From an uncultured virus (IMG/VR IMGVR_UViG_3300045738_001977) (taxonomy: Duplodnaviria; Heunggongvirae; Uroviricota; Caudoviricetes): DNA of 64,000 nucleotides. Made by a program: the position numbers and the translations under genes. Position 1 is the first letter of the stretch. Each line of letters opens with the position of its first letter. Shown here piece by piece: positions 34,197 through 59,862 of the stretch. The notes under the pieces were generated by a model, which was not told the DNA's origin, ran no database searches, and worked only from the letters and a program-made list of their open reading frames with translations. The stretch lies in IMG/VR virus record IMGVR_UViG_3300045738_001977. One strand, written 5' to 3'.

Positions 34197-34508
34197 ATGG
34201 GAAAAGATAGAGATATTCTGAACTCTGAATCAGAAAAAATTATCAAAAGGCTTTTTAAGTATTATTTATCTTCTATTGAAGATTTAAAATATCAACATCT
34301 TGTCGCCTTAAAACGGCTAAAAACCGAACTTTCCCTCGAACAAATCGAAATTTTAAATTATTTAGATACCCACCGCTACACTATGATAAGGAAAAGGATC
34401 CTAGATAACGGTAATGAATCAATAAGAGATTTACATAATTTTTTGGAAAATTTCGACATTAAACTAAAAGATAATACATCAAACAATAAACAGGAAAAAG
34501 GAAAATAA
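34197..34508 (+). CDS. Hypothetical helical protein
   Basis: 103-aa ORF with upstream motifs. Confidence 0.7.
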   Translation: MGKDRDILNSESEKIIKRLFKYYLSSIEDLKYQHLVALKRLKTELSLEQIEILNYLDTHRYTMIRKRILDNGNESIRDLHNFLENFDIKLKDNTSNNKQEKGK

Positions 34509-34510
34509 TT

Positions 34511-35644: not shown

Positions 35645-35664
35645 AATTAAAATATTTTTATGAC

Positions 35665-36543
35665 GTGAACGTTATTCACACCACGAAAGATGCTCGCCGC
35701 GCATATAGAGAAATCCTTCAAGGTTATTCGTACATAGAAGAAGACGATTTATATATTAAGCACTTTACTGAAGCTGATTTGGGGCTTCTAGAAGTGCTTT
35801 ATAAAAAATGCGAAAAAGAACTTGGGAAAATAGGCATAGAGTCTTCTAAAGAAAAGCTAAAATTTCTAGACAAACAAGGCTATTGGACTAAGGACGAAGA
35901 AAGCGCTTATGTAAACGCAAGATATTCGGTAAATGATGGCCTAGCCTTTCAAGAAAAACTTACAGACCCCAAGCAAAAAGAAAATTTTCAAAAAGTAATA
36001 AAAGAAAAAGAAGAAATACTTAAAAAAATTAAAGAGACGAGAGACGAAGTATTAAACCCAACTACAGAAAGCTTCTGCGATAGAAGAATTAACGAGCATT
36101 ATGTTCGCATCGCCCTATTCAAAGACAAAGGACTCACGACCCCCCGCTTTACGGAAAAAGAATTTCAAGATCTAACCTATGTTGAGCTAGGCGATTTAGT
36201 GCAAAAATATAATGAAGTTATAGATGTTTTTAACGATCTTAACATAAAAAGGGTCGGGGTAAATGGTTTTTTTCTTAATGCTTTTTTAATGAGCAATAAT
36301 GATCCCGTGAAGTTCTATGGGAAAAGCGTCCTAGAACTAACCATGTATCAAATTAACCTATTTGGCAAAGGAAAATTCTTTAAGTCTATACTGGAAGAAG
36401 GGAAAGACCCGCCCGACTCCATATACAATATGGTTGAAGAACTTGGGCTTGACCCAATCGTAAATTGGTTCGACGCCGCTTGGGCGCAAATACAAGCCGA
36501 GAGGGCAAAAAGAGAAGCAATGTCAAGAGTCAAAAGAAGATAA
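35665..36543 (+). CDS. Probable second tail assembly chaperone (T-like)
   Basis: Directly before the TMP; GTG start without SD; its frame is open back to 35614, in the -1 frame of the upstream gene. Confidence 0.55.
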   Translation: MNVIHTTKDARRAYREILQGYSYIEEDDLYIKHFTEADLGLLEVLYKKCEKELGKIGIESSKEKLKFLDKQGYWTKDEESAYVNARYSVNDGLAFQEKLTDPKQKENFQKVIKEKEEILKKIKETRDEVLNPTTESFCDRRINEHYVRIALFKDKGLTTPRFTEKEFQDLTYVELGDLVQKYNEVIDVFNDLNIKRVGVNGFFLNAFLMSNNDPVKFYGKSVLELTMYQINLFGKGKFFKSILEEGKDPPDSIYNMVEELGLDPIVNWFDAAWAQIQAERAKREAMSRVKRR

Positions 36544-36606: not shown

Positions 36607-39600
36607 ATGGCAGACATTAGAGTAAGAGTCGCTGGCGAAACCACTCAGCTCCAAAAGGACATCAAAAGAGCTTTAAAGGGTGGCTATTCTCTGGGTTCGC
36701 TTGATGGCAAGGGGGTCTCCCAGCCCCTTGGCAAAATCAAGGGGCAATTAGGAGAGTTTGACAAGTCCATGGAGGCCGCTAATGCTCGTGTCATAGCGTT
36801 TGGAGCTTCAACTGGCGCTATTTATGCTGTCGCCACAGCAATTCAACACATGGTTAAGTCTGCTATCGAAGTAGAAAAAGCCCTTACCGATATTAACGTA
36901 ATTTTAGGAGCAACTTCTACCAACCTAGAAAAATTTGGAAATTCTTTATTTGCTATAGCCAGCGCAACTGGTCAATCGTTCAAAACAATAGCTGAAGCGG
37001 CGTCAGAATTAGCAAGACAGGGCTTGGGCGTAGAAGAATCACTAGGACGAGTAAGAGACGCAATGATCTTGGCTCGCATATCTGGATTAGATGCCGCCGA
37101 CGCAGTTAGCTCTTTAACGGCTGTTCTTAACGGTTTTACAAAAGCGGCGTATGAATCAAATGAAGTTGTAAACAAAATAGTCGCTGTGGATGCAGCTTTT
37201 GCTGTAAGCGCTGCCGATTTGGCAGAAGCTATTAAGCGCGTTGGAAGTACCGCTGCCGAAGCAGGCGTTTCATTAGAAGAGCTATTAGCTATTACCGCAG
37301 CCACACAACAGGTAACTGCTCGTGGGGGCGCCGTAATTGGTAACGCATTCAAAACAATTTTCACAAGGATGCAAAGACCAAGGGTTATTGAAGCTCTAAA
37401 AGCCGTCGGAGTAGAAACAAAAAACGCTTCAGGAAGTTCTCTAGGCTTAATGAAAGTTTTAGAGAATATGGCAAAATCATACGACAAAATGAACTCGGCT
37501 CAAAAGTCTGTGGTAGCAGAAATGGTTGGTGGCGTTTTCCAAGTAAACATATTAAAAGCAGCGTTGGGAGATTTAAGCAAAGAAACCTCTCTCTATGGCC
37601 AAGCGCTCAAAATTGCAAACAGCGCGACAACTGAAGCTAACGATAGAAACAACGAGCTTAACCAAACGATAAGTTCTCAGTTGATTAAAACAATGAACAA
37701 CCTAGTAAGGGTTGGCGCCAAAGTAGGAGAATTAACGTTCGGCCCTGCTTTGGAAAAAAGCTTAGCAGGAGTTAATTCCATACTTGGAAAAGCTGGCGAT
37801 AAAGATGGGGGCGGAGAAAGTATTGGTAAAAAATTAGCAAAGGGCCTTCTGTCTGGCATAGGTTCTGTCATTAGTGGTCCCGGGATCGCCTTTATAACCC
37901 TAGGAATAATGAAGCTATTCCAAAAATTAGTTAGCTTTGCCTCCGACGCCATGGGTTCAATGTCGGGGCTCAACAGTAAATCCAAAGAAACAGCGGCAAT
38001 ACAATCTCAAGTGTTACAATATCTTCAAAAAAACCCAGCAGTTATAGCCGGGATAAACGCTGGATTGGTAACTGAAAAACAGTTGCATTCTGATATCCTT
38101 TCAATGCTAAGAAGGCAAAACGACGAGTTAGACGAACAAGAAAAGGTTGCCAACCGAATTGCACAAAAGATGCAGAGAAGCGGAGCAAGAGTTTCGACAG
38201 CTACAGGAGCGAGAGAAGGCACGATTCGCGGAGGTGGCGCGGCAATAGGATATGTCCCAAATTTAAGTGAAAAAAAATACGAAGAAACAAGAGCGAGACA
38301 GCTAGGAGCACCCCCATCCGTACAAGCGAAACATTACCCACAAGGAAAAATAAAAGGAAAACCATTTACCGCCAACGACCAAGAAGACGTTCTTTCTCCG
38401 AGACAAATGCAAAAACAATACGGTGTTACTCCTCAGAAAGGAGAATACACTGTCTTACCAAAGTATGGAAAAGTGGGGCAACAAAGAAAAAAGGAATTAA
38501 AACAAAAAATTGAAAAAGCTCAAAAACCTATAAATTTTTCAGGAGGTTTTGTCCCTAATTTTATTACAGAGAATGACGTTGAAAAATTTAAAAAATCAAC
38601 ATTTAACAAAAGAAAATTTGGCAAAAAGAGAGGGGCCGTAAAAACCCAAGGCACAAAGCCAACGGCGGGACAAATGTTGGGGTACATGAATCAAAATATA
38701 AATCAAATAGATGACGCAGAACTTAAAACTTATATAGACCTAAATCGTCAAGGAAAAATATTATTGAATTGGCCGCGCGGAGGCGGTAAGCCTAGTGAAC
38801 AAACGCAAGCAAGAATTTCACAAATGTCAGGAGGCAAAGCCGGAACGAGCAAAAAAGCTGGAAGGACAAAAGAAGAAAGAGGCGCCGGTTTATCTGCGGC
38901 AGACATAGAGGGCCCAATTCTGCCGGTGCTCAAGCTTCAAACCGGGGGCGAAACTGCAGAAATTGGACAAAGAACAGCCGGCTTTGGTTTAAAGATAAAA
39001 AACGTAGAGAAAGATTTTAACAAACATTTTAACGCCGAATACGGAAAGCTCGTCGGCAACATGGGGGCAAAAATGTTCCAAGGAAAACCAGAGTTGCAAA
39101 AAGCTTTTAAGCCTCAAAAACTAGCCGCCGACGCGCAAGGCCAAGTTAAAGGTCACGTATGGGAAAGCTTCGTAAGGGGCATGATGCAGGAAGAAAAAGC
39201 GGTCGTTAGCAAAAGAGTTGACGTAAGTAAAGGCACGAAAGTAAGACCAGAGTTTCAAAGTTTGTTTCCAAAGCAGCTTCACAAGGGTGGGTTTGAAATT
39301 AGAGCAGGAGGAATATCAGGGCCAGACGCCGTAGGAAAAATGGAAGAAAGCGGAATCTCCACGACCTTTAAAAAGCTTGGCGCAGGTTATACCACTACGA
39401 AAGGCGGCAGAAGAAAACTCTCCCACAAAGAAGCCAGAGAACTATATGAATATGAGCATGGTGAAAAACCAAGTTTCGCGCCAGCGCACGACATGGCCAA
39501 GGGCACTTCGTCAGCTGTGGATTTTGGCTCCAAGAAAAAAGGCGGCATAAGAAGAATGGTTCTAGACTCAGACTTTTTAAAACAGCATTATGCAAAAATG

Positions 39601-42600
39601 GGGCCGGAGGCCGCTCAACAATCAATGAGCGCCCAACTTGACGGTGACCCAAAACCAAACATTAAAAAACTTTTTGATAAAATAGCCACACAAGCTCAGC
39701 AAAAGGGCAAGAGAACTACCTTAGTCAACGCCGCTCCCGGCGCAGGAAAAACATCTTTTGCCATGGGCAAAAAAGGCACCCAAATAACATCGATTGGCGA
39801 CCTTGATCGCGGAAGCAAACTAGTAATACTTAGAGCGGTTGAGCGAGGCGAAAACCTAGTAAAGGAACCCTATTTTAACAAAGCTGACAGGGTAATGCAC
39901 TTGGATGTTCCACCTGAAGAGATTGATAGAAGAAGAGCTCAAAGAGATAAGTCAATTAGAGCGGGCACATCAAAAACTGCGTACGGCAGACCCGTTGGCT
40001 CAACCGAGTTCGCGGGAAAAGATTTCAGCGCTGCAGAAGCCAGAGTAGCAGAAGAGTTTTCGGGAACCAGCGGAAAATTTAAATCTCTACAAGCCGGAAA
40101 AGAGAAGTGGAGAATGAAAGGCGCTTCAGAGATTGAAAAAATTCATGACACCCCAATGGTTATGACCGCTGGAGCATTTTCCCCCCCACATAAAGGTCAT
40201 GGTACTATTTTCAAAAAGATGTTGAAAGACGCGGAGAAAACAGGCGCGGTGCCTATAGCCGCAGTATCAAAGGGAGAGGGGAGAACGGGAGACGTAGGAT
40301 TAACAATCAGAGAAAAAAGAAAATTAATTGAAACAGAATACCCCGAAATGCAAACCATGGGTATTTCAGGATTCGGGGGTATACCGGAAGTTATGCGAGG
40401 ACCCGACGGAAGACTTATAAGAGCAAAAGCTGGAAAGTCAAAAGTCATTCTTGGAAGCGATAGGGTTAGCGACTCCGTAGGGGCAGGCTTTAGAAAAAAG
40501 GGAATGGAAGTTGAAGGGGTAGCCAGAGATCTTAATTCGAAAGGGATGGATGCAACCGACGCAATAAGCGCGACAAAAGTAAGAAGCGCTATTTTAGGAG
40601 GCAGAGTAGGAGAGGCGAAACAAGCCCTAGACCCTCGAATTGGAGAAATACTTACTAGACCCGAAAATGTTAATAGGATGAACAAGCGGGCGGCGGTTAT
40701 AGCAGAAAAAAAACAAAAAGAAAAGGGTATTAATACTTTAGTAGACGCAGAATTTAGAAACCTAACAAAAATAGCAGTTAATAAAGGTATTAGAGGCGCG
40801 GGAGAAAAGCCCATTTCCCGACTCGTTGGCCCAGTAACAAAGTCTGATGATCCCGAAGTTATAGCTTCAATAGGGCGAATTAAAGATTTAAGAGAAAACG
40901 AAAAAACAAGAATTAAAAAAGACTACGATCATCGCGTTGCTCAAATGGCTCGAGACAACCCTATGTCTATGGGCAGTGGTTATATTCCTAATTTTGCTAT
41001 AATGCGCAAATATAGCAAAGGGAAAAATGTTATGTCATTTGATGGGACAATAGATGACATAGTTACATCCATCGAGTCGGGCGGGCCCGAATTGAAAAAA
41101 ATTATTGAAAATGCAAACAAGAGTCTTGTCAGCACTCGGGAAGGAAAAGGAACAAAAAAAGCCCCCGGACCTTTTGCTCACGTTGAAGACACTTCATATG
41201 GATCCCTAGCTCCAATAGAAAAAACCGACAAATTTACTTCAAGAACCAAGTTCGTGAAAATTACTCCAAAAGAGATAAAGGCGTTTCAAGACCGCCACCA
41301 CCCTGAAAAATTCCCTGACAATGTGGCTGCAGAATTTGTTATGGCAGAAAAATATGGAGGATTCGTAACGGGAAAAGATCAATATCACGGAGGGTCGGCA
41401 GCCGAAGCTAAACGGCAAAAGATAAGAGGGATTGGTGAATCACAAAAAAGAACGGTCAAACAGCGGCCCAACAAACGCTCAACGGGGGAAGGAGCGTTAG
41501 GTGACAAATATTCGCAAGACATCCTTTTCCCCAAAGGAGGAGATACACATGGCCTTGGAGCTGTATCTGCAGATACGAAATGGAAAGACAACATAAGCGC
41601 TCCAAACAAAGGCAAGGGCCTAGGAAAACCGAAAATAGAAGAATTTTACGGAGCAACGATCGGTAAGCACGCAAGAGACTCCTTGTCTCGCGGCTTGGTA
41701 GATAGACAATTCAAAGAAGCTAAGCAAACTCGGGTCGATAAGATCGATTTTGGACTAGGGCTTATGGGAACGAAGGAGAAGGCGTTAAAAAAACTCCCCG
41801 GATCTTCGCCGAAGAAAAAAGCCGCACGCTCGTCTGGGCGGAAGTCCGAAGGTTACATTCCAAACTTCGCAAAAAAAAGAACGGGGGGAATTAAAGCAGC
41901 TATCGAAAGAGAAGAGTCTGCCGGACACAAGGCTAAAGTTTTATATTCAGACAGACTACAATCTCCCGTTGTAGTAAATGAGAAACAAGTTAAAAAACAT
42001 GGCCCCAATGCTGACGCGATCATAAGAGGGGATCATGTTAATCAGGGCCAAGGAGGATCAAAGACCAACCTAATGAAATCCGGCTCAGGCAAGGAAATGT
42101 ATGACGACGGTTTTGTTCCTAATTTTATGGGCGGTGGGGGCTTTATGGGGTCAATGGGCTTGGGAATGTTTGGGTTTATAGCTCAATTTGATTCACTGAA
42201 GAGATCTCTTGACCCGGTTCAAAAAGAGCTGCATAAGACCTCTAAAGAATTGGGAAGATGGCAAATAGACTTAGATAAACTAGACCGATCACTTGAGAAA
42301 ACAAGAGGGGAGTTGCACGAATTAGGCGCCGAGAATGTAAAACTAAAGGACGTGGGTGGCGGTAAATATGAAACTGAAGATCCAAGATTAGCGGGGGTTT
42401 TGAGTTCGGCCAATATGCCCGCATTGCAAACGGAGGCGGATCGTATCCGCGGCGGAGCCTCCGGCCCCGGCGCCGAAAAGGCCGCCATGGAACAGGCTGT
42501 TACGGAGGCTCGAACGGCAGAGCTGCAAGCTCAAGAAGGGCGTGATGTTGGAGAAAGAGGGAGGAAAGAAACACAATTAACTGGTGGTCAAGATAAAGTG

Positions 42601-54600: not shown

Positions 54601-57600
54601 GCAGCGTGGGTGGAAGCCGGAGGTGATCCCTCCAAGCTCCATCGCGCCCAAGTCGAAGCAGAAAAGCATCAAGCGGAAGTGGAGCGCGCCCCAGAAACCA
54701 CTTACGTAGGGTCATCTCGCGGTGTCTACAAACTGAGCGGGGAAGGCGAGCGAAAGCGGAGAATCGAGGAAGCGGAAAACGAGAAAATCGCTGCTCAAGA
54801 AGAATTGGTTGCGCACCGGGCGCCTACAACCGACAGATTTGGCGGTCAAGAAGCTGCAGAAACTTTACAAGCAAACCTTAGAAATATTTGGAGAGTTGGC
54901 TCCGAAGGCTTTAGTAACGCAATGCCTACCGCACTACAACAATTTGCTGCTTCGGGAGCATTTAGCGTAGACGAACAAAAAAATCTCGCTACAGCGGCAA
55001 CTCGAGCTGACGCTCAGGGTACATTTGGTTTACCGATTTTTGGAGAAGGAGATACTGGAGGAGGACTTACTGGCGAAAGTTTTGCTAAGGCCCTCAAAGA
55101 CTCCGCTCATGAAAAGAAGAAAATACGTCTTTCCGAAAAACAATTAGATAAATTAAATCAAATAATTGATGCTCTAAGAACAGGCTCCCCAGAAGAACAA
55201 GCAACAGGAGACAGACTAGAGGCCGTAGCTAACGCAATAACCGAACGCGGAACACTCGGCGGGGGTCGCGCTGGCGCCGGACAAGCCGGAGGATTTGTTC
55301 CAAACTTTAGCAGGGCAGCTGAAGAAGCAAATATGCCTGCTGGAGCAAAGGCCTATTATGATGGGTCAGTTCAAATCAATGGACAAAAGGGAGCATGGTT
55401 AAACACTAGTGAAAAAGTTTTCAGGGGCGTAGGGAAAAACGGAGACAGCGCAGTTCTTAACGAAAAAATGATGAGAGCTGCAGCTAATGCGGCGGACGGC
55501 TTTGTTCCGAATTTTGCTGGTGGGATGAGTCTAGCTCAAAAAGCAACGGAGAAACCAGAGGACAGGAAGGCTCGCATAAGTAAAGAAAAACGCTTAAACC
55601 TACGTCTCGCTGGCGCAGCGAAAGAACGGAAGCCCGAAAAGAAGCCGTGGTACAAATTTTGGAGCGAAGGCTTCGTTCCTAACTTTGGTGGCTGGTGGTC
55701 TGACATGAAAACGGGCGGAAGCATGTTGGTAGGGCTTGCTACTGGCGGCGCACTTGGCGATTCGAGCGCAGAGAATGATTTAGCTGGGGCTGACGCTTCT
55801 AATTTTAAGCGAGGTGAGATGACAAGGCGTAGCACATTGCAAAACTGGAATGCCGGTGCGACCGGAGCCAAGTACTTGGGAGATGGGGCGCAAGGGGCAT
55901 TGACGATTGCTACGGGCGGAGCATCGGCGAGTATTGTTGCCGGCGCAAAAGCCGTAAGTACAAAAGCCGTAGGTAAATTAACTACTAGTTATGCAGCCGC
56001 AGGGAAAGGGGGACAAGCTATTGCTCGGAATGCAGGCAATATTGACAACACGATTAGCGTTGTCTCATCCGGAACCCCTGCATTATACGCAAGCAGAGCT
56101 GGCGGCTTCGTTCCGAATTTCCAACCTCGGGGCGGCCGACGAAATCCGTTTGCCGCAGTAATGGCAACCCCACAAGTCGGCACAACGTCCGGCCCGGCGA
56201 CAATAGCTGCTCCCGGAAGACGTGGAGGCGGACGGCAAACATCGCTCGGCCCGGCCCCAATAGCTGCCCCCGGAAGACGTGGAGGCGGACGGCCTCAACC
56301 CAGAGTAGGAGCAAGACCTCAATCCGGGAGAAGTTCTGATAGTGCGTCAACTACCGTCCGTGAACCAACGGCAAAAGACATTGCAGACCTACAGCAAGAA
56401 GAGCGCAACTTTCAGGCGGCCCGAGCTCTAGCCGCACGTAGAGCGCCGGAAATAGCGGCGGCTCATAAGGCGTACCTAGAAGCAAAGGGAACAATATATG
56501 AAAAAGGACGCCTTCGCCTTCGCGACGAACTGATCAAAGAAATATGGGGTGCTGGCTCCACGATAGCAACACCCACTGCGCCTGCCGCACCCGCTCCACG
56601 TGACCCAACGCCAGAAGAAATAACGGCCGCAGTAGAAGAAGAGCGCGCCTTTCAGAAAGCTGAAGCAGTGGCGAAAGCGAAGCAGCAAGTTAAAATAGCT
56701 AAAGAAGCTGCAGAGAAAAAACGCGCAAAAGCTCTAGCAGAACATAGAGGCTATGATAGAGAAACGGGGGGAACAAGAAAACTGGAAGTTTCCCTTAATG
56801 ACAAATACGGCAACATTTATACAAATAAATCAGCAAAAACAGGACAAAGATTTACCGCGTTCTCCCCAGACGGCAAAGCAATAGGGATGTATGAAGTAGT
56901 TCCCAGTGTTGGAGAGGGCTTCAACGAAAAAACCGGGAAGGGAACATCAAGGCTACAAGCAGTTCAGGGGTTAGGCAAAGGCCCCGGCACGTTACCACCC
57001 GGAACGATACTAAGAAATATTAACCGCATGGCAGAAGAAAGCCAAGAAAAAAGCGCAGGAAAAACAGAGGGTGCTACTTGGCGATCAGATAAACTACAGG
57101 AAACTAAACCTGTTCTTGCGGCCAAGCACATACCCACGCCCGCCGCACCTGCGCTCGCCGCACCTGCACTCGCTACTGTAGCTACGCCAGCCGACGAGTC
57201 AAAAGCCGATCGCAAAAAGCGCAAACAAGGTCGCCGAAAGAAACGGGCTGAGAAAAAGGCTGGCCAAAACATACCTCCATCGACCGCGCCCCTTGTTCCA
57301 ACTAAATCGCCACCAGAGAGCGGGCATGTGATGAATTATGATCCGAAAAGCGGCAGCTATTTAATTACAAACGGTAGCTTGGGTGACGTCGGTCAAATCA
57401 TTGGCCCAGATGGAAAAGTGTTGGGAGAAATAACGGTAACAGGAGAACACTCTAAGCGGAAAGAAGGAAACCTCATGACCGTAGCAACATCGACCATGCC
57501 GCCGGGCACAGATCCAACCGGATCAATTGTTCGTTGGGGCAAAAAAGAAGCAAAATATTCCGGCTTTGTTCCGAATTTTTCCACTGGTTTAGAAAGAGCA

Positions 57601-59862
57601 ATTAAAGCTGAAAACAAAGCAACGGGTGGACAAGCAGAAGTCAGAACAAGCCCCACCTTACATGTCGCTGCAAGGGGGCAAGAAAAATGGCCATTCGCAA
57701 AGAGTCATCCCGAAGGAATACAAGCTGCCATAGCTAATTCTAAGGCAACTCAGATTCCAAATTTTGCACCACCAGCCAAACCTGACGGAGCAACAACTGC
57801 GCTGGCGAAAGTAGAGAAAGATTTAGCAGATAAAATCAAAAGATTAACAAACACACTATCGACGACGGGTGAAAGGTTACTACCAGTCGGTGACGGATTA
57901 AGCCAATTAGCTACTATAGAAAAAGGTCAAATCAAAGCGGTACAAAAATCTACCAACGCATACCAAAAAGCCGTAAGGAACAAAGCTAGCGCCGTCGACA
58001 TTGCCACAGCTTTCAAAAACGCTCAAAAAGCTCAAACCGAGTTATCACGAACACAGACAGACATAACAAGCATAAAAGAAATAAAAAGACTGGAGAAAAT
58101 TGACAAAAAATCCGGCCAAGCCAAAATAACAGGCGCCACCACTATACAAGGCGTATCCGCACAACGCGGATTAAAGGGGACTGTCATTGATCCAACACGA
58201 GCAAGAGCAAAACCAAAAGCAGGACCAACTAAAACCGGAGGATGGCAAAACATAGTACCCGGGGCCGGAGCAGGTTCCGGAGGAGGAGCGTCAGGAATCC
58301 CCGGGGTTGTAGGCAGAGCGCACTCTGCGTCAGCAGCGCTTGGACGACGTCACCCAAGGCCAGCTCCAACCGGAACAACGTATAGTGATCCCAGCGGCGT
58401 TAGAATTACAAGACCCTCTGTTACCGGACCAACGCCCGCCGCTACTGGAGCTGTCACTCCACCCACCGGTACACCCACGTTCACAACAGCGCCTCCAACA
58501 ATTCGTCCCGCTGCGGCTCCAGCGCCACCCGCTCGCGCGGCGCCGCTTGAAGACCCAAGATCATTTAAGGGAAAAATGCAACGAATACGGCTCCAAAAGC
58601 AAGCTGAAAAAGATGCGCAAGCTGCGGCTAATAGAGCGTCAAGAGGACCGGGAGGCCCCGCTGCACCCGCTCCCCCTACCGGAATGGGTGGCCCCCCGGG
58701 AGGACAAGTTCAACGCGAAGATCAAGAAGTTGATTACGAAGTAGAACAATCTACGGAAAATCTACTAAATATTAAAACAACAATAGAACAACTTACAGCC
58801 CAAGCAAAACAAGACAGGTCAGATATGGGCGCAGGCAAGGCTGGAGCATCCGCAAGGTTTGCTCAAACCCAAGCAGAATTAACCAAAGCCATAGAAGAGC
58901 GAGAAAAAGCGTGGAGAAAAGACGAGAAACTTAAATCACCCGAGGCGAAAAAAGCAAGAACGCTCAAGAAAAGATTAGGAAAACATGCGAAACCGTTAAC
59001 ATTTGAAAGAACTGGTGAAGATACCGAAGGCGCTAGCGCCATGATGCAACCGGCTTTCGGAGATCCTCTAGGCTCAAGATTTAACACGGCAGGCGGTGGC
59101 GAAGGGGTTGGCCAACAACAAACGTACAACCTTGGAGATGGAAGGACAATTAACCTCGGCGCCGGAGGGTTGTCGTCTGCGGCGGCACTTGCAATGGTCC
59201 CGGGCATGGCGACAGGAAGCACCAGTGGTCCTCGCGGCGGAGCCCCCGGCGTTTCAGCCACAACTTCCTCGACCACAACTGGGATGCCCCCCGGCGTTTC
59301 GGCCACAACTTCCTCGGCCGCAACTGGGATACCCGCTCTAACTGGTCAAGCAGCCATGGTCCAAGGTTTACCCGCTGATACGAGCGACCAACGTGAAACA
59401 CGCGAACGAGCTCTTAGGGCAACGTATCCGGATAGAGACCCAGTGCGCGCAGGTGGAGAAACAGGCAATGCTGAAGGCGACGGAGAAAGGATCGTAAAAG
59501 CAATGACAGACGCTATCAACGCGTCTTTCGCGACGAGCATACCGAAATTTGCCGACGCAATGAGCGCTAAGATTGGCGAAATATTCTCAACAAATAACAA
59601 ACCAGAAACCGGTGGTGACGCTGAAACACCAACAGAGTTTGTTAGCACTGGTGGAGATGAAGGCGCCATATCTGGCACAATAAAACACGATCTAGGAGAA
59701 CTTGATGGTCATTTCACAATGGAAATAGGCGGAAAACTTGAAGGAGTAGGTTTGTCGGCGGAAGAAATAAATAATTTAATTATAGCTAAAATCGGAGAAG
59801 AATTTGAAAAACTAGGAATAGAATATACAGCGGCACCGCCAACTAATATACAAAACGTATAA
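36607..59862 (+). CDS. Giant (7,751 aa) tape-measure protein with embedded P-loop kinase and HxGH nucleotidyltransferase domains and repeated G[FY][VI]PNF motifs
   Basis: The N-terminal ~400 aa match TP901-type TMP cores ('EVEKALTDINVIL...AEAASELARQGL...FAVSAADLAEAIKRVGSTA..AGVSLEEL......RGGAVIGNAFKTIFTR'). Canonical position after chaperones. APGAGKTS at 39733; GAFSPPHKGH at 40171. Confidence 0.88.
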   Translation: MADIRVRVAGETTQLQKDIKRALKGGYSLGSLDGKGVSQPLGKIKGQLGEFDKSMEAANARVIAFGASTGAIYAVATAIQHMVKSAIEVEKALTDINVILGATSTNLEKFGNSLFAIASATGQSFKTIAEAASELARQGLGVEESLGRVRDAMILARISGLDAADAVSSLTAVLNGFTKAAYESNEVVNKIVAVDAAFAVSAADLAEAIKRVGSTAAEAGVSLEELLAITAATQQVTARGGAVIGNAFKTIFTRMQRPRVIEALKAVGVETKNASGSSLGLMKVLENMAKSYDKMNSAQKSVVAEMVGGVFQVNILKAALGDLSKETSLYGQALKIANSATTEANDRNNELNQTISSQLIKTMNNLVRVGAKVGELTFGPALEKSLAGVNSILGKAGDKDGGGESIGKKLAKGLLSGIGSVISGPGIAFITLGIMKLFQKLVSFASDAMGSMSGLNSKSKETAAIQSQVLQYLQKNPAVIAGINAGLVTEKQLHSDILSMLRRQNDELDEQEKVANRIAQKMQRSGARVSTATGAREGTIRGGGAAIGYVPNLSEKKYEETRARQLGAPPSVQAKHYPQGKIKGKPFTANDQEDVLSPRQMQKQYGVTPQKGEYTVLPKYGKVGQQRKKELKQKIEKAQKPINFSGGFVPNFITENDVEKFKKSTFNKRKFGKKRGAVKTQGTKPTAGQMLGYMNQNINQIDDAELKTYIDLNRQGKILLNWPRGGGKPSEQTQARISQMSGGKAGTSKKAGRTKEERGAGLSAADIEGPILPVLKLQTGGETAEIGQRTAGFGLKIKNVEKDFNKHFNAEYGKLVGNMGAKMFQGKPELQKAFKPQKLAADAQGQVKGHVWESFVRGMMQEEKAVVSKRVDVSKGTKVRPEFQSLFPKQLHKGGFEIRAGGISGPDAVGKMEESGISTTFKKLGAGYTTTKGGRRKLSHKEARELYEYEHGEKPSFAPAHDMAKGTSSAVDFGSKKKGGIRRMVLDSDFLKQHYAKMGPEAAQQSMSAQLDGDPKPNIKKLFDKIATQAQQKGKRTTLVNAAPGAGKTSFAMGKKGTQITSIGDLDRGSKLVILRAVERGENLVKEPYFNKADRVMHLDVPPEEIDRRRAQRDKSIRAGTSKTAYGRPVGSTEFAGKDFSAAEARVAEEFSGTSGKFKSLQAGKEKWRMKGASEIEKIHDTPMVMTAGAFSPPHKGHGTIFKKMLKDAEKTGAVPIAAVSKGEGRTGDVGLTIREKRKLIETEYPEMQTMGISGFGGIPEVMRGPDGRLIRAKAGKSKVILGSDRVSDSVGAGFRKKGMEVEGVARDLNSKGMDATDAISATKVRSAILGGRVGEAKQALDPRIGEILTRPENVNRMNKRAAVIAEKKQKEKGINTLVDAEFRNLTKIAVNKGIRGAGEKPISRLVGPVTKSDDPEVIASIGRIKDLRENEKTRIKKDYDHRVAQMARDNPMSMGSGYIPNFAIMRKYSKGKNVMSFDGTIDDIVTSIESGGPELKKIIENANKSLVSTREGKGTKKAPGPFAHVEDTSYGSLAPIEKTDKFTSRTKFVKITPKEIKAFQDRHHPEKFPDNVAAEFVMAEKYGGFVTGKDQYHGGSAAEAKRQKIRGIGESQKRTVKQRPNKRSTGEGALGDKYSQDILFPKGGDTHGLGAVSADTKWKDNISAPNKGKGLGKPKIEEFYGATIGKHARDSLSRGLVDRQFKEAKQTRVDKIDFGLGLMGTKEKALKKLPGSSPKKKAARSSGRKSEGYIPNFAKKRTGGIKAAIEREESAGHKAKVLYSDRLQSPVVVNEKQVKKHGPNADAIIRGDHVNQGQGGSKTNLMKSGSGKEMYDDGFVPNFMGGGGFMGSMGLGMFGFIAQFDSLKRSLDPVQKELHKTSKELGRWQIDLDKLDRSLEKTRGELHELGAENVKLKDVGGGKYETEDPRLAGVLSSANMPALQTEADRIRGGASGPGAEKAAMEQAVTEARTAELQAQEGRDVGERGRKETQLTGGQDKVEALEKRAQAEEEFKNKLSAGAMAVGMAMSVAAGMIQDETSRWKKGMEAAGQGAQMAATAMFMIPGPIGLSIGAVLGIATAARGIFHAMTDVGPKLKKAFEQGREELTKFSNGIQKYTQLYQKNMQAHEDPNTSAQTLIRLNRQMAEALMDVPLAYRAQIASAKNMTQMQEEMANALAEKTRSVQQMEVSAKIGQKLDDSRGMLPDTGQDLMRWIGLKKLGQTIGMVDKEPYNPKTRGGRMEAKAVANKLLTSLSETQLDTVMNFQEQVIDNDDNRRALPGSGKETTAALRLSGELMRDVSSIEELVDVLEDMRKNGAAVSMIMARVSAGAARMKEQLEVEKDLSRIRGEQKHWNEQLSDSLKASVNSYNQAKSAYAQFLQLIGKKMAFREKMIQERGSKFGKIGGRTAREIKYKEVELDMKRLAPFMSAGDASRKKEQLAMVRMLDKNAKSIEAVLTPVASDMGAIVQKQVASVKLQAKQLETGTPGAGGSKDKWVAATKKVKKALDLQEMVFFQEREEIGKGFTPEQIYQRRENLMASPLAKEVLGGGKISQIMTDLGTKVMVTNQKLSEMKIEQLKQLKAMLHGNIVAERMRQDKVDLKTMGGIEAFLNPSAFKPLEQAYNKSLTNLSRGREYGSQETRGRGAMQYLLSMKQMTGGSLDAKSPMVERYRREAISGKMTDEANKWRSLADREFQEAGRAPVGSRDRSDRLAAADYAMGRSEDVEGLTRTATKQVDAKLKLDNTIIGNLQDMNSWLKQIKEVLDLKTTENDRILSRALEKTTAGPDAERVDRQVFNFRQQIKMQQQQAEDIASTKEHINNIFAVMKKVAVASKGEYDTEDMEDSFTMQGMNNFFNQAKYVQPYERNEKGQFYSTKTKGFEDNVALKDRKQIAGNPLVKAMALIKKQMGDIQERTTGKRGENWTKGDVGMQKRYGARGKVTGREYVARHEGGDREAYRRLTSELILIKGMMKSSDIADTFTDTMKGGANRMVAEQALRVQSGVDQHGKPLPEGGGGYGQSSKEAPQVTPRGVPIYSGGAEDRKVDAQVDAAYDAGHRWDVVSGGEPEGFRDFQRIGMENAKLTSDPICECIRALGNKFADYGGNYKMSGVEKNQPFPKDVGAAFPTGPGLPQTLPLVPMVAAATTGIPAIVRAISTGWNKVKQGWDKATKSRFAQEIKSRAARFKEAGGFKGAGKRFAAAYRSPETYKGAERKTLTRAGLKQLAGGQQQLEMFSKTGGQGQYLGEEPTYRMDKNTLSQRAGGFLGRNLPKFMGGQGFAGDAVKWREGGGMGRLKDKGAEAVSKIRASMEPLLQKYADFSGRAPERREEVGKSLKKLLQKYADFSGRAPERRAAVGKGFKDFWEGMKGQKFETTPSKFGHDPGRAQRAGIKTFDALLKIMNKISGGTTDLVTLQQKGLNTSKAGWANMKAWNTVMGAIKAIPNIFVGAVQGLAGGGEGWRSGGFGGKSGAWSEKGIDKLIRGISKGVGYVVGAVPRAIIKGIWKAMPLELVPPTAPETAKAIEAAKVKAMPRTGIGGGISDAIAEKSGASGETKASRGKLKWNFGKGALGSLGEFADIGQMRTRFSGADAEKTWQAKVAKRQTAYEKGGKARLQAKMTVAGKGEIAPVQVPIKAGAKERWMRANARDGRVGGMGSQRGVGSGGGVVRHWIDAARRQVFGREMGGLGKGHRQNLALSEEGGKLGAGKTFTDRFTGKGGTEIQRGTIGKWLTSPLKSASAAWKGEGWAGAGRGSLYDRTAERVKGWHGAKMEGAQGPGALAGAKRAGLTGLGYAGRGIDATRSFMQKPLPSLGGRMAMTYGIGKAISGVTSAAAGDPHRDMADKKGFWEKGLSRNLLGSFTKTGRKEKGHLENLSGGLIDTTSWTHQGRTGESGSTDFRWRGKEAVDATLINTVAAGIFRNLSGEMGASQFAKQYATNAAGQVPVYSQGYSHAMDATSNTGKFFGTKTTGYLADTSAKGVRGALGKGIEGLGKLLDKVTGASSRAIINPPIRSTGQGFSIGQTGKAATTSAPLGAANLLKGGLIHVVGSALGDFIRAQAGEFEGGGAADIGGFMTKVGAAAYGGTVATGGNFVGGAISGIIEAGFEFKQIGNDVGALNDQMNELGNLYGSTANQYRTHFNSWASDMTMSGKHMKKFGDTFKAIGEWKATQQETMGATARESRPGVGSFIWDAVTLGGREGSTDKKIYEATSGAREKEAAALEVLRKKVLQLARDLGRTKDGIVKFAKITNVAGELVTNAYKMDIRTAGGGGLQQMSDRLLKDAVAGRGIKERETARQDAIDKHKRSKSIGLSVAGQFGQGSFGGAITDENAQIKMARAVALGKLAKKEELAVSKVPSRYQPEARRQSEARMKQIAPQSFAKWEEGGKKNAFSVFLKEGRDALTKTQGSKPSPMDRAKTGRQQSEFGSFYAYEEMFKQSSDQSSQRGQGVMIGIMTRQLHELRMIREINDGWSRASGTSGVPKRATFIKTKPEEHQRTAYAGKTAGIQIVTAMNNAVAQQQAAQGRPYQQPAQNRPWPQRPAQPGAAQPAQPGTARPGTARPGTARPGTAQPAQSGAPQPGPTDSSAVDAARYAAGAPPLNSPTAPPPPALFGMSQVGGVNIYAQNTQATSDHYRDLAGAGRRAGPGPRQLAQYKNDGWDGTGSGAHWAGEPGAMGTPNRGSTVVLVEQRSRAMQPGADINQAPYASGGTPPADAASSIISDGQRMVLQAVAAARAAMEELERMKQPAESPYGDTMGDPTDIAAQTKIVKTLKDKVISLGGKIGAVVGRKKAEDAAPDALKGPAGAVGEVAGRAQGAATTKQFIDAISGISLGDQMIATAIVSGFQALVTAAKDPSKAGDVSGLGNIIKDFLTRSQVSNFSGGSGRAGSPPTTETPEAPTPAKPVVPTLAKKPVVPTPAKQAPSPNTLPTDKVDPDTGLPSSAANAIPNADFMDSRARAQGVDPTTGLPTAGISQLGVDPLTGLPTGGGPGGGGGSGSGGGYGGGGATLDTGVQAALSATPVTGDPTSLPVGAFAPGTALQDMGGSRPLKTDPMWSKGLAPNWAKAEENKDAINQRPIPVGMTKFNAMGEDVPLRELTAFEAGGIQGLENRDVKLRIGQGKLATTPDQRQGLTRAIATGMQRPVDEGGFGMTAVRHSYVGGQEAVPGVAMSAGTLGARHGVPYGGAYSGSKSSKVAGGVATTRIISASEGKVKEAKERLEKARKARSNYKGKKGLNEPKWVELDKKFAEAQYELEALQAGGETETSQERNVGVAAKTSAQPSQPAFRRKIPTQGGAGYTSTGTYEFRHEKKTDEEARRLLGEQAAVAGGERQANYSTTPGVRRVKPGSQIISQLKPIEHAGVPIDNSKMTEGHFDKGMFFGPYADQSYNPNAQIGTSGSNAQEELTTLRGKLEGPNALGKNEYAILASEETGQEKIQGPKGTRGKIDAVLRNMTVGDLYRGTQAETVNKRSGRPQSPQQRIKFGGKAANLETSKGTMASWDEFSTGMEQIRYSLGGEIDPFNMAEQTPGLGGKRLSDVARAEGELLYTNKRKVDGKTQVTGREGAGRLYARQGRYELGKSGFNQNTGEGIYGTGILAQQSAFMQGPLRAQTGIFGQAMERYRGGGAALTEQEFAGGPKSQFQKQLFQIKSAQVGTFDRGQGKQGDFSPGGIAAYGKKGMRSQLKRELDKDGKTERWMFRGKEVKRGSDLARRISTGTQSTLGYRTENDAKTKLGLKKDGGTYDSSKRYSLQGQAEYAAEQYRSAKDDKGRERAKRLAPKGLDLWNEDSAYRKGLDKLQQEGLTTEGLGAGDISQYGRRFRRDNEGNLQRKAQEDTKGFVVNERIAQKFEEKKISNERAGTVIPGGKRTEDQLRTAGREEMLGLEPGQLTAEQKKQIETQRRARPEEGLTDAQRTKLQSQRTAKRTTQRAALTDKTASSYAGTTGGEAEFKRISANYNKLMEARGGEKLSDAELKDFLAGETKGALQPPDERRGNLRIRSEKVGQGAAWVEAGGDPSKLHRAQVEAEKHQAEVERAPETTYVGSSRGVYKLSGEGERKRRIEEAENEKIAAQEELVAHRAPTTDRFGGQEAAETLQANLRNIWRVGSEGFSNAMPTALQQFAASGAFSVDEQKNLATAATRADAQGTFGLPIFGEGDTGGGLTGESFAKALKDSAHEKKKIRLSEKQLDKLNQIIDALRTGSPEEQATGDRLEAVANAITERGTLGGGRAGAGQAGGFVPNFSRAAEEANMPAGAKAYYDGSVQINGQKGAWLNTSEKVFRGVGKNGDSAVLNEKMMRAAANAADGFVPNFAGGMSLAQKATEKPEDRKARISKEKRLNLRLAGAAKERKPEKKPWYKFWSEGFVPNFGGWWSDMKTGGSMLVGLATGGALGDSSAENDLAGADASNFKRGEMTRRSTLQNWNAGATGAKYLGDGAQGALTIATGGASASIVAGAKAVSTKAVGKLTTSYAAAGKGGQAIARNAGNIDNTISVVSSGTPALYASRAGGFVPNFQPRGGRRNPFAAVMATPQVGTTSGPATIAAPGRRGGGRQTSLGPAPIAAPGRRGGGRPQPRVGARPQSGRSSDSASTTVREPTAKDIADLQQEERNFQAARALAARRAPEIAAAHKAYLEAKGTIYEKGRLRLRDELIKEIWGAGSTIATPTAPAAPAPRDPTPEEITAAVEEERAFQKAEAVAKAKQQVKIAKEAAEKKRAKALAEHRGYDRETGGTRKLEVSLNDKYGNIYTNKSAKTGQRFTAFSPDGKAIGMYEVVPSVGEGFNEKTGKGTSRLQAVQGLGKGPGTLPPGTILRNINRMAEESQEKSAGKTEGATWRSDKLQETKPVLAAKHIPTPAAPALAAPALATVATPADESKADRKKRKQGRRKKRAEKKAGQNIPPSTAPLVPTKSPPESGHVMNYDPKSGSYLITNGSLGDVGQIIGPDGKVLGEITVTGEHSKRKEGNLMTVATSTMPPGTDPTGSIVRWGKKEAKYSGFVPNFSTGLERAIKAENKATGGQAEVRTSPTLHVAARGQEKWPFAKSHPEGIQAAIANSKATQIPNFAPPAKPDGATTALAKVEKDLADKIKRLTNTLSTTGERLLPVGDGLSQLATIEKGQIKAVQKSTNAYQKAVRNKASAVDIATAFKNAQKAQTELSRTQTDITSIKEIKRLEKIDKKSGQAKITGATTIQGVSAQRGLKGTVIDPTRARAKPKAGPTKTGGWQNIVPGAGAGSGGGASGIPGVVGRAHSASAALGRRHPRPAPTGTTYSDPSGVRITRPSVTGPTPAATGAVTPPTGTPTFTTAPPTIRPAAAPAPPARAAPLEDPRSFKGKMQRIRLQKQAEKDAQAAANRASRGPGGPAAPAPPTGMGGPPGGQVQREDQEVDYEVEQSTENLLNIKTTIEQLTAQAKQDRSDMGAGKAGASARFAQTQAELTKAIEEREKAWRKDEKLKSPEAKKARTLKKRLGKHAKPLTFERTGEDTEGASAMMQPAFGDPLGSRFNTAGGGEGVGQQQTYNLGDGRTINLGAGGLSSAAALAMVPGMATGSTSGPRGGAPGVSATTSSTTTGMPPGVSATTSSAATGIPALTGQAAMVQGLPADTSDQRETRERALRATYPDRDPVRAGGETGNAEGDGERIVKAMTDAINASFATSIPKFADAMSAKIGEIFSTNNKPETGGDAETPTEFVSTGGDEGAISGTIKHDLGELDGHFTMEIGGKLEGVGLSAEEINNLIIAKIGEEFEKLGIEYTAAPPTNIQNV
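46529..46649 (+). repeat. 46-bp exact direct repeat (LLQKYADFSGRAPERR x2) in TMP
   Basis: Copies at 46529-46574 and 46604-46649, period 75 nt. Confidence 0.9.
50212..50330 (+). repeat. 15-nt tandem repeat (PGTAR/PGAAQ) in TMP
   Basis: cccggcactgcacga-type units. Confidence 0.85.

Follow-up and report, generated by a model that had tools for sequence, protein, structure and literature searches.

The tape measure gene and its two arrays

The window analysed here, a 64,000-nt stretch of DNA from an uncultured virus of the Caudoviricetes (IMG/VR record IMGVR_UViG_3300045738_001977), carries one open frame for a protein of 7751 amino acids (aa). Residues 120-306 of this protein match the TP901-1-type PhageMin_Tail domain PF10145 (1e-32, 114 bits versus a cut-off of 33.2), which is also found in 10/10 full-length relatives scanned. 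In addition, 27 PHROG families match residues 1-548, with phrog_4211 as the best (1.3e-50), and the annotation of the matches listed for this region is mostly tape measure. Judged by these matches, the protein is a TP901-type tail tape measure protein (TMP), and its relatives are likewise TP901-type, uncultured and mostly marine. A capsid-like gene lies upstream of the TMP gene, and three upstream ORFs (34197-34508, 34511-35644 and 35665-36543) are conserved alongside it in 4/4 loci. Family matches were found for none of these three, while an ESM Atlas search with two of the conserved upstream proteins led to unnamed viral clusters only. The gene and the hydrophobic segments called within it by a crude hydropathy script (Kyte-Doolittle window) are as follows:

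36607..59862, plus strand: gene of the giant tail tape measure protein, 7751 aa, one open frame (PF10145; PHROG)
37846..37902, plus strand: hydrophobic segment 1 (aa 414-432), preceding array 1 (Kyte-Doolittle window script)
42649..42843, plus strand: paired hydrophobic segments (aa 2015-2033 and 2054-2079) that follow array 1 (hydropathy script)

Hydrophobic segment 1 keeps its position in most relatives, and the loop between it and the next hydrophobic pair contains the first of two module arrays (array 1, aa 548-1840, about 1300 aa), which holds two cargo segments. Array 2 (aa 6229-7053), with three cargo segments, is situated near the C-terminal end, and a ruler stretch of 4389 aa separates the two. 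The original prediction had described two separate motif clusters, each opened by a small domain A and closed by a domain B; these are instead two arrays within one tape measure protein. Its cargo counts of two and three were right, and the coordinates of its four A and B segments are correct, all of them lying in frame in the ORF 36607..59862 on the plus strand. The bounds it gave for A1 (aa 554-646), A2 (aa 6235-6297), B1 (aa 1755-1834) and B2 (aa 6992-7048) coincide exactly with the stretches between copies of a short peptide, G-[FY]-[IV]-P-N-[FL], which the prediction itself had not included in its coordinates and which is termed the fence in the following. Array 1 comprises these features, with fence motifs 1 to 11 here and below located by motif scan:

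38248..38265, plus strand: fence motif 1, GYVPNL
38266..38547, plus strand: A1 unit (aa 554-647), small A-family module of alpha/beta type (A-core alignment, 9 relatives)
38545..38562, plus strand: fence motif 2, GFVPNF
38563..40980, plus strand: cargo 1 (aa 653-1458; HMM, PHROG, motif positions)
38836-39273, plus strand: canonical cargo domain in cargo 1 (aa ~744-889; canonical-cargo HMM)
40141-40629, plus strand: HxGH nucleotidyltransferase-like domain in cargo 1 (aa ~1179-1341; phrog_3041)
40978..40995, plus strand: fence motif 3, GYIPNF
40996..41853, plus strand: cargo 2 (aa 1464-1749), orphan (no family match)
41851..41868, plus strand: fence motif 4, GYIPNF
41869..42111, plus strand: B1 unit (aa 1755-1835), conserved closing module (profile search, 19-unit alignment)
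42109..42126, plus strand: fence motif 5, GFVPNF, with a hydrophobic stretch rich in Gly and Met behind it

The canonical cargo is one conserved domain in 19 relatives that is kept in the window at aa 744-889, where its HMM scores 19.0 bits against cargo 1 (E 5e-8, valid for that single comparison). Inspection of the 19-relative alignment by eye revealed the pattern G..FE ... D ... [DE]xK, which may correspond to a PD-(D/E)xK nuclease-like signature and whose [DE]xK site reads E-I-R in the window and E-I-K in P0002, the closest relative. Searches with this domain returned nothing from Pfam (E<=10), PADLOC or the PDB sequences, and its part of the AF2 model has a pLDDT below 40. Cargo 1 further contains a P-loop (GAGKTS, aa 1045-1050) and the nucleotidyltransferase-like domain, whose HxGH motif has the form H-K-G-H (aa 1195-1198). 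The latter domain matches phrog_3041, a cytidyltransferase family, at 4.4e-8 and Pfam PF01467 with 15.8 bits, below the cut-off of 21, and its NCBIfam matches are marginal and far below the cut-offs. A PDB sequence search with cargo 1 gave no match, and cargo 2 is without a match in Pfam, PHROG, NCBIfam and PADLOC.

Array 2, which is limited to the giant lineage, is composed as follows:

55291..55308, plus strand: fence motif 6, GFVPNF, opening array 2
55309..55500, plus strand: A2 unit (aa 6235-6298), A-family member (A-core profile, BLASTP to P0019)
55498..55515, plus strand: fence motif 7, GFVPNF
55516..55671, plus strand: segment 1 (aa 6304-6355), Lys/Glu-rich, orphan (Pfam, PHROG negative)
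55669..55686, plus strand: fence motif 8, GFVPNF
55687..56106, plus strand: segment 2 (aa 6361-6500), Gly/Ala-rich, orphan (Pfam, PHROG, NCBIfam negative)
56104..56121, plus strand: fence motif 9, GFVPNF
56122..57564, plus strand: segment 3 (aa 6506-6986), largely low-complexity, orphan (Pfam, PHROG, NCBIfam, PADLOC negative)
57562..57579, plus strand: fence motif 10, GFVPNF
57580..57750, plus strand: B2 unit (aa 6992-7048), closing segment resembling a weak or degenerate B' (B and B' profiles)
57748..57765, plus strand: relaxed fence motif 11, TQIPNF, closing array 2

In P0002, a lysozyme-like domain occupies residues 6226-6381 and starts one residue after a fence motif; the full Pesticin/lysozyme domain (1.4e-30) was found in a fragment that shares 99.9% identity with P0002 over residues 6164-7656. 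A sequence similar to the relaxed motif 11, QIPNF, is also present near the C-terminus of P0020.

The fence peptide and the opening and closing units

In its strict form, G-[FY]-[IV]-P-N-F, the fence occurs in 10 copies in the TMP frame, compared with a chance expectation of 0.009 on average and 1 at most in 2000 composition shuffles, and with no copy in the remaining five frames or in any other ORF of the window. Glycine precedes the motif core in 10/10 copies, and the sole copy in the ruler stretch between the arrays is one loose LAPNW at aa 5052. Alignment of 74 instances from 13 proteins yields a logo with Gly at -1 (68/74) and Ala or Ser at both -3 (61/74) and +5 (54/74), and the consensus spans about nine residues, [KR]-[AS]-x-G-[FY]-[IV]-P-N-[FY]-[AS]. 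Two AF2 models were inspected, both of low confidence (mean pLDDT 56.5 and 42.0). In the model of the canonical cassette the blocks with the four motifs have a mean pLDDT of 26-53 versus 57-71 for A and B, and the motifs are disordered in the second model, which includes the B unit, as well.

The level at which the fence is conserved can be read from its codons. Among the 11 copies synonymous sites vary, Gly being encoded by GGA, GGT or GGC and Pro by CCA, CCT or CCG, with similar variation for Asn, Phe and Val, which indicates that selection acts on the peptide and not on the DNA. Hence, the fence is conserved as a peptide rather than as DNA. An explanation of the motif as a DNA-level recombination linker, maintained as microhomology for cassette exchange while the peptide has no role, would account for the fact that the cargo of close relatives differs exactly at the motifs; however, with synonymous positions free and identity kept at the amino-acid level it was dropped and must be considered extremely improbable. 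A further view on selection is offered by P0032, in which about 10 fence copies follow one another at distances of 17-38 aa, mostly 19-21, and all but one (GYITNS) are intact though the spacers between them have diverged. This implies that every copy is individually selected, which would fit an avidity effect.

The A unit of L004, which is homologous to A1, is modelled by AF2 as a helix, four strands and a helix (pLDDT 60-71), while the B core appears as a helix, a hairpin and two helices (pLDDT 72-79). Fold searches with both AF2 models gave best Z scores of 3.2 and 6.3, which concern helical or low-confidence parts only. A profile search with B1 retrieved 29 matches at E<=0.001 among 1.84 billion representatives. 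Many polar residues of the B unit are invariant (R, E, S, Q, H, G), and most of these sit in its C-terminal half, the part that is missing from the short variant B'.

The original prediction regarded A1 and A2 as related, and B1 and B2 likewise. For the A units, a direct BLASTP comparison without the motifs gave no alignment, and inclusion of the motifs resulted in an alignment (E 5e-4) that was out of register. By contrast, a motif-stripped A profile built from 9 relatives scores A2 with 10.7 bits, a value reached by 0/2000 shuffles, and the second A of the closest relative with 27.7 bits. Moreover, a search with A2 alone recovered the A unit of P0019, an independent relative of 2033 aa (16/29 identical, E 6e-6), and A1 of P0001 shares 34% identity with the second A of P0002. 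These matches connect A1 and A2 through the family and, at the level of sequence comparison, identify A2 as a true A-family unit. The kinship of the closing units fared less well: B1 and B2 align with E 9e-4 when the motif is included, but not significantly without it (E 0.085). The B profile scores B2 marginally (7.6 bits, 2/2000 shuffles) and the short-B' profile with 3.1 bits (56/2000 shuffles), while BLASTP of B2 against the B' of L005 returned nothing. B2 is thus at best a degenerate B'-like unit. A treatment of A and B as one family was rejected, the hhalign probability of their cores being 0.4%.

The role assigned to these units also has to be revised. While A and B had been proposed as the conserved machinery of the clusters, the most conserved machinery of the arrays is the fence peptide G[FY][IV]PN[FY], and A and B are themselves fenced modules.

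Array layout in relatives

In the clade, the stretch at about aa 545-990 comprises three modules, namely A, the conserved cargo domain and B or short B', with a fence before, between and after them. Among 45 proteins of at least 1500 aa, which were found by B or B' search and therefore contain closure units by construction, 21 show the order A ... B/B' and none the reverse, in agreement with the predicted conservation of order in homologues; 15 more of the 45 possess a B/B' closure without a recognisable A. The anticipated expandable array is real: 17 of the 21 full-layout relatives have one cargo segment and four have two, and even the two closest giants differ in cargo content but share A, B and the motifs. 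Specifically, the BLASTP match of P0001 to P0002 ends at aa 1465 and restarts at 1746, with unrelated sequence replacing cargo 2 in P0002. By comparison of the sequences, array 1 is an enlarged version of the module set of the clade. The architecture, its conservation, and the variable number and content of the cargo are thus shown directly.

Beyond this clade, tblastn against deposited phages found no match for array 1 and none for a B'-plus-motif stretch, and two mid-size relatives used as queries matched with their N-terminal ~400 aa alone, the matching proteins including TMPs of Bacillus SPbeta-type and Lactococcus phages over about aa 8-410. An IMG/VR scan with cargo 2 plus B1 of the window had no hit, a metagenome scan recovered one syntenic locus, and a genome scan two short MAG contigs, which come with no reliable host information. 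The literature searched contains no description of one peptide that fences modules, with fixed opening and closing modules and exchangeable cargo in varying number between them.

The fixed order bears on a further element of the original prediction, namely that A and B bind each other, or that B self-processes, whereby the cargo is looped out or released. The position of A first and B/B' last in 21/21 arrays having both, as well as the many invariant polar residues of B, would fit such a model. On the other hand, the A and B cores are unrelated, the AF2 model of the whole canonical cassette, albeit of low confidence, has no A-B docking or contact, the 15 relatives with closure lack a recognisable A, and the short B' is devoid of the half that bears most invariant residues. 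Pairing or self-processing of this kind is therefore very unlikely. The chaperone-binding function that had been considered for A and B is a live option when applied to the fence peptide instead.

Possible roles of the fence

Single embedded or fused enzymes are already known in the TMPs of T5, TM4 and P23-45. In T5, a TMP trimer is formed by pb2 (pb2* plus pb2C), whose muralytic C-terminal piece is an enzyme domain beside a hydrophobic stretch that is delivered at infection; unlike the many modules described here, T5 is reported to have a single enzyme at the C-terminus and to undergo one cut during maturation (bioRxiv 10.1101/2022.09.20.507954). In contrast to the repeated fence, no motif of the PNF type was found in pb2. 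Similarly, the TMP of mycobacteriophage TM4 is reported to have an embedded peptidoglycan-hydrolase motif that aids infection, though a single one, without fences or an array (PMC1796659). The Thermus phage P23-45 protein gp96 is a giant TMP of 5,002 aa with an N-proximal enzyme that is thought to enter the host together with the TMP; its cargo is a virion RNA polymerase, whereas the window has a conserved orphan domain together with a P-loop and a domain of nucleotidyltransferase-like character, and a fence is not described in the sections available (PMC10770324). The closest counterparts are TP901-1/SPbeta-type TMPs, which share the N-terminal PF10145 domain and a loop enclosed by two hydrophobic regions. 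In TP901-1 this loop is reported to measure 129 aa and is predicted to be cytoplasmic (PMC5099701), whereas the array amounts to ~450 aa in the relatives and ~1300 aa in the window. Furthermore, the window protein differs from this type by its 7751 aa, its second array and an array 1 unmatched among deposited phages.

The presence of two rows of separately folding modules in one TMP suggests that the tail carries ready-made proteins into the host. By analogy with T5 pb2 and P23-45 gp96, the TMP is very probably a carrier with fenced modules, and the fence probably represents a peptide that is read by some partner. According to the explanation favoured here, the TMP would be expelled from the tail at infection, upon which the modules would reach the envelope or the cytoplasm of the host and adopt their fold in that compartment. 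The fence, located in disordered linkers flanking every module, would constitute a docking site for a chaperone, either a SurA-like PPIase of the host periplasm or a tail assembly chaperone of the phage, which would keep the individual beads unfolded or soluble, both inside the tail and in transit, and subsequently aid their refolding. For this full explanation, comprising carrier, fenced modules and putative chaperone docking, we estimate a probability of roughly one in three; the assignment of the fence as a putative chaperone docking site specifically is tentative to the same degree. Docking, as opposed to cutting, is favoured by the case of HK97, whose injection is reported to need the TMP plus the periplasmic chaperone FkpA (PMC5099701).

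Two further observations argue in the same direction, namely the ~10 closely spaced fence copies of P0032, as for avidity, and the partial likeness of the fence form GYIPNF to the SurA ligand WEYIPNV, with which it has Y-I-P-N plus a hydrophobic residue in common. The latter peptide, obtained by phage display, is described as binding the P1 PPIase domain of SurA with a Kd of 1-14 uM (PDB 2PV1), and client binding by SurA as multi-site and avidity-driven (PMC11401910). A look-elsewhere effect applies to the likeness of WEYIPNV to the fence. WEYIPNV is an in-vitro selected ligand of E. coli SurA and may not fit the host here. Moreover, against docking, the first aromatic residue of the SurA signature Ar-X-Ar-X-Pro is not conserved and the fence keeps Ar-X-Pro alone: the residue two before [FY] is S14/K11/E7/A6/Q5 of 74, where the SurA preference needs an aromatic one. 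An extended version, in which the fence mimics an outer-membrane-protein client signal and recruits host SurA-type PPIase chaperones at each module boundary, so that the tail would deliver and refold an exchangeable effector set and the two arrays would serve different compartments or entry stages, is rather doubtful. Also speaking against docking itself, array 1 may never face the periplasm, as argued by its cargo with a P-loop and a nucleotidyltransferase-like domain and by the loop of TP901-1 being predicted as cytoplasmic.

The main rival to docking is polyprotein processing, according to which the fence is a protease site and the TMP is cut at each fence during maturation or after ejection, freeing A, cargo and B from the ruler, as in T5 pb2. 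Strict conservation of one peptide wherever two domains meet would be expected just as much of a polyprotein that is cleaved at these sites. The same peptide of ~9 residues indeed recurs at every module boundary in low-confidence linkers, and in P0002 a fence lies one residue ahead of a complete enzyme domain. In addition, T5 pb2 is reported to be cut between the hydrophobic stretch and the muralytic domain, with the freed enzyme staying in the tail, and the lambda TMP to be cut as well (bioRxiv 10.1101/2022.09.20.507954). However, no protease candidate was detected beside the TMP gene, the three conserved upstream proteins being without family match, and T5 pb2 has no PNF-type motif. Furthermore, the many close and nearly all intact copies of P0032 are hard to explain if one cut is enough, and cuts at all fences would also part the N-terminal TMP domain from the ruler. 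Cleavage is consequently judged somewhat unlikely, and docking is favoured over it.

Since TMPs fill the lumen of the tail tube, the fence may alternatively be an assembly or structural motif that contacts the inner wall or acts as a fixed hinge, keeping non-helical modules in register without any enzyme delivery. The location of the arrays in a lumen-filling protein is consistent with this idea, the T5 TMP being reported as a trimer in the lumen (bioRxiv 10.1101/2022.09.20.507954), and the tandem repeats of P0032 resemble the repeat-based length tuning reported for TP901-1 (PMC5099701). Yet the interaction network between TMP and tube wall is described as poor in T5 (bioRxiv 10.1101/2022.09.20.507954), the fence is confined to module boundaries instead of being spread along the 4389-aa ruler part, and the cargo includes complete enzyme domains. 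A purely structural motif is accordingly regarded as improbable.

New in the present case are the two-array form, the A-first/B-last order, the indications of selection on each fence copy and the lead provided by the SurA peptide. The fence as well as the A and B units constitute small, well-defined objects for binding, cleavage and structure work. Should a chaperone or a protease indeed recognise the fences, this would explain how siphophage tails load varied proteins and deliver them ahead of the DNA, and the fence could serve as an easily searched sequence mark of such cargo in metagenomes.

The tape measure gene and its setting

The original prediction had placed two motif clusters between 38266 and 57750. 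The coordinates stand, but the clusters are not free-standing: the whole interval lies within a single ORF (36607..59862, plus strand, 7751 aa) which matches tape measure families, so that both clusters belong to the same tape measure protein (TMP). Residues 120-306 correspond to Pfam PF10145 (phage minor tail/tape measure; 1e-32), while residues 1-548 are matched by 27 PHROG families (best 1.3e-50), most of those listed being tape measure families. By its N-terminal domain and hydrophobic regions the protein belongs to the TP901-type TMP family. Based on P23-45, whose TMP of 5,002 aa accompanies a tail of 800 nm (PMC10770324), a protein of this length would imply a tail of more than 1 micrometre at ~0.16 nm per residue, if every residue counted.

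The window represents a phage structural region, all of it read from one strand, and also encodes a capsid-like protein and a glycosyltransferase.

2-3481, plus strand: Calx-beta protein, at least 1159 aa long and running off the window edge at its 5' end; it carries five Calx-beta domains (1.8e-51)
3499-4635, plus strand: tubulin/FtsZ-like GTPase (PF00091, 6.4e-13), adjoining the Calx-beta protein
12090-29213, plus strand: second giant ORF (5707 aa), which separates the capsid-like gene from the tail genes
34197-36543, plus strand: three ORFs of 103, 377 and 292 aa directly upstream of the TMP gene

Tubulin homologues are a typical feature of large phages. The 5707-aa ORF comprises collagen triple-helix repeats as well as laminin-G/ConA-like, peptidase M43, glycine-rich and F5/8 type C domains, and has the appearance of a very large fibre or decoration protein.

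Motif copies and the units they bound

Within the TMP each module is bounded by the peptide G-[FY]-[IV]-P-N-[FL], termed the fence, whose copies form two arrays.

Array 1, plus strand: residues 549, 648, 1459, 1750 and 1836
Array 2, plus strand: residues 6230, 6299, 6356, 6501 and 6987, with a looser copy, QIPNF, at residue 7049

Scanning all six frames of the window revealed ten strict copies, each in the TMP frame and each preceded by Gly, compared with a mean of 0.009 and a maximum of one in 2000 composition shuffles of the TMP. Across 74 instances from 13 full-length proteins, the conserved stretch extends to about nine residues, [KR]-[AS]-x-G-[FY]-[IV]-P-N-[FY]-[AS], with PNY replacing PNF at the related locus L005. 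Synonymous codon positions vary freely among the 11 copies of the window; selection therefore acts on the peptide and not on the DNA, and the same variation makes a role as a DNA-level linker extremely improbable. In P0032, a related TMP, about ten copies follow one another 17-38 residues apart (mostly 19-21), and all but one are intact amid diverged spacers, which points to selection on each copy.

The proposed opening units A1 and A2 and closing units B1 and B2 coincide exactly with the outermost stretches between motif copies in their arrays, and they enclose, as predicted, two cargo segments in array 1 and three in array 2. Kinship between the arrays, which had also been proposed, is borne out for the A units through relatives only. 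In direct comparison, A1 and A2 yield no BLASTP alignment in motif-free coordinates. In contrast, a profile built without motifs from the A units of nine relatives gives A2 a score of 10.7 bits (equalled in 0 of 2000 shuffles) and the closest relative's second A unit one of 27.7 bits; the latter shares 34% identity with A1, and A2 alone matches the A unit in an independent TMP of 2033 aa (16/29 identities, E 6e-6). For the B units the relation is marginal: a profile built from 19 B units scores B2 at 7.6 bits (2/2000 shuffles), while direct BLASTP of B1 and B2 in motif-free coordinates gives only E 0.085, which does not indicate direct kinship. Adding the motifs brings both pairs to no better than about E 1e-3, the A pair out of register. 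Some relatives carry a short closing unit, B', which hhalign aligns to the N-terminal half of B, with its helix and hairpin (probability 53%, E 1.4e-4); B2 scores 3.1 bits against a profile of three B' units (56/2000 shuffles) and has no BLASTP match to the B' of L005. A common family for the A and B cores was ruled out (probability 0.4%).

Two AlphaFold2 runs, of low overall confidence (56.5 and 42.0), predict A and B as small alpha/beta modules with moderate confidence. The B1 core is modelled with one helix, a hairpin and two further helices (pLDDT 72-79); when the whole cassette is modelled, A attains pLDDT 60-71 and B 57-70, while the four motif-holding blocks average 26-53. Pairing of A with B, as originally envisaged, finds no counterpart in this low-confidence model, which places the two units out of contact, and it appears very improbable.

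Conservation of the layout and diversity of the cargo

A word-index search with array 1 retrieved a single protein of comparable size, the closest relative P0002 (7656 aa, 54% identical over the region), which recurs in several assemblies and likewise contains both arrays. According to BLASTP, the two proteins are collinear over residues 1-1465 (61%) and 1746-2876 (38%) of the window TMP, whereas cargo 2 of array 1 and all that follows residue 2876, the content of array 2 included, are unrelated. A B1 profile run against 1.84 billion representatives returned 29 hits at E<=0.001, some of them full-length TMPs 2000-3000 aa long, while the B' of L005 gave 53, mostly of 1700-2000 aa, named TP901-family TMPs by their sources and in many cases marine. 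Among 45 proteins of at least 1500 aa found with B or B' queries, where closure is present by construction but A, motif and order are not, 21 display motif-A-motif-cargo-motif-B/B'-motif in order, typically at about residues 545-990, with one cargo segment in 17 and two in four. A further 15 show a B/B' closure without recognisable A, and nine lack both the complete layout and a labelled closure. The predicted order is thus conserved in homologues, B preceding A within an array in 0/45. Among deposited phages, matches to these TMPs are confined to the N-terminal ~400 aa and never include the array. Related TMP fragments also occur on short MAG-binned contigs (L002 and L003; P0052) assigned to Woesebacteria, Proteobacteria and Crocinitomicaceae; such disparate phyla probably reflect phage contigs binned with cellular genomes and hence provide no reliable host.

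In canonical relatives, the single cargo is one conserved domain, alignable across 19 relatives, with the pattern G..FE ... D ... [DE]xK. By eye, this reads like a PD-(D/E)xK nuclease core, a reading without a Pfam, PADLOC or PDB sequence match and in a region modelled with very low confidence. Cargo 1 of the window retains this domain at residues 744-889 (19 bits, E 5e-8 as a single comparison), followed downstream by a P-loop and by an HxGH nucleotidyltransferase-like domain (phrog_3041, 4.4e-8; Pfam and NCBIfam scores below their cut-offs).

Residues 1045-1050, plus strand: P-loop in cargo 1

The remaining cargo segments of the window are orphans, those of array 2 partly of low complexity. 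In P0002, a full-length Pesticin/lysozyme domain (residues 6226-6381, 1.4e-30) starts one residue past the motif at 6221-6225 and stops before the next motif-like site; hence, fences coincide with true domain boundaries. The TMP gene also contains short in-frame tandem repeats with periods of 15-45 nt (50205-50302, 51279-51345, 57137-57173 and 59243-59334), which translate into low-complexity stretches rich in Pro, Ala, Gly and Thr, located in the ruler part and the third segment of array 2.

Array 1 is flanked by a hydrophobic segment (residues 414-432) and a hydrophobic pair (2015-2079; about 1100-1200 in relatives), and array 2 lies about 700 aa upstream of the C-terminus. For the TP901-1 TMP, PMC5099701 describes a 129-aa loop between two hydrophobic regions as predicted to face the cytoplasm. 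The relatives' hydrophobic region downstream of the array (profile positions 1067-1190) weakly matches, in a PDB profile search, residues 234-408 of chain 7rb4_A (E 5.8e-4, 20.8 bits; entry title: diphtheria-toxin domain), which could reflect only hydrophobic helical composition.

Possible roles of the fence

The preferred reading, at a probability of about 0.35, is that the fence is a chaperone docking peptide, tandem copies of which would confer avidity. Its sequence is similar to WEYIPNV, a peptide selected by phage display that binds the P1 PPIase domain of SurA (Kd 1-14 uM), and SurA client binding is described as multi-site and driven by avidity (PMC11401910), which fits the tandem copies of P0032, intact but for one. 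Moreover, HK97 injection reportedly requires its TMP and the periplasmic chaperone FkpA (PMC5099701). Against SurA in particular, the first aromatic of its Ar-X-Ar-X-Pro pattern is not conserved in the fence, and cargo that uses nucleotides hints at the cytoplasm as the place where array 1 is delivered. The three ORFs upstream of the TMP gene are kept in 4/4 loci with a fenced-array TMP (the window, L001, L004 and L005) and have no match in Pfam or PHROG. They are candidates for tube proteins or chaperones, and also for the partner that would read the fence.

The main alternative, only slightly less probable, is that the fence is a cleavage site and the TMP a polyprotein, as finding a conserved peptide wherever two domains meet is a classic polyprotein mark and TMPs are known to be cut. 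According to bioRxiv 10.1101/2022.09.20.507954, T5 pb2, a trimer, is cut during tail maturation between a hydrophobic stretch and a muralytic domain, the freed piece remaining in the tail until it is expelled at infection. However, no protease candidate was found beside the TMP gene, T5 pb2 is devoid of such a motif, and tandem copies are hard to account for by cleavage. A structural or assembly role of the fence is unlikely.

As a separate observation, T5 pb2 (phage T5 locus L006, 12122-15781, minus strand) reads N-S-F-V-P-R-A in the segment that separates its hydrophobic stretch from the metallopeptidase region, sharing FVP with the fence. The preprint assigns the maturation cut to this segment; the resemblance is only a lead.

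The array modules would travel with the TMP, a reading drawn by analogy with T5 pb2 and P23-45 gp96, two published TMPs carrying enzymes into the host; in gp96, a virion RNA polymerase is fused to the N-terminal part (PMC10770324). A search of the open-access TMP literature found no published description of the fenced-array layout, and it is the fenced array that sets this protein apart from other TP901-type TMPs.
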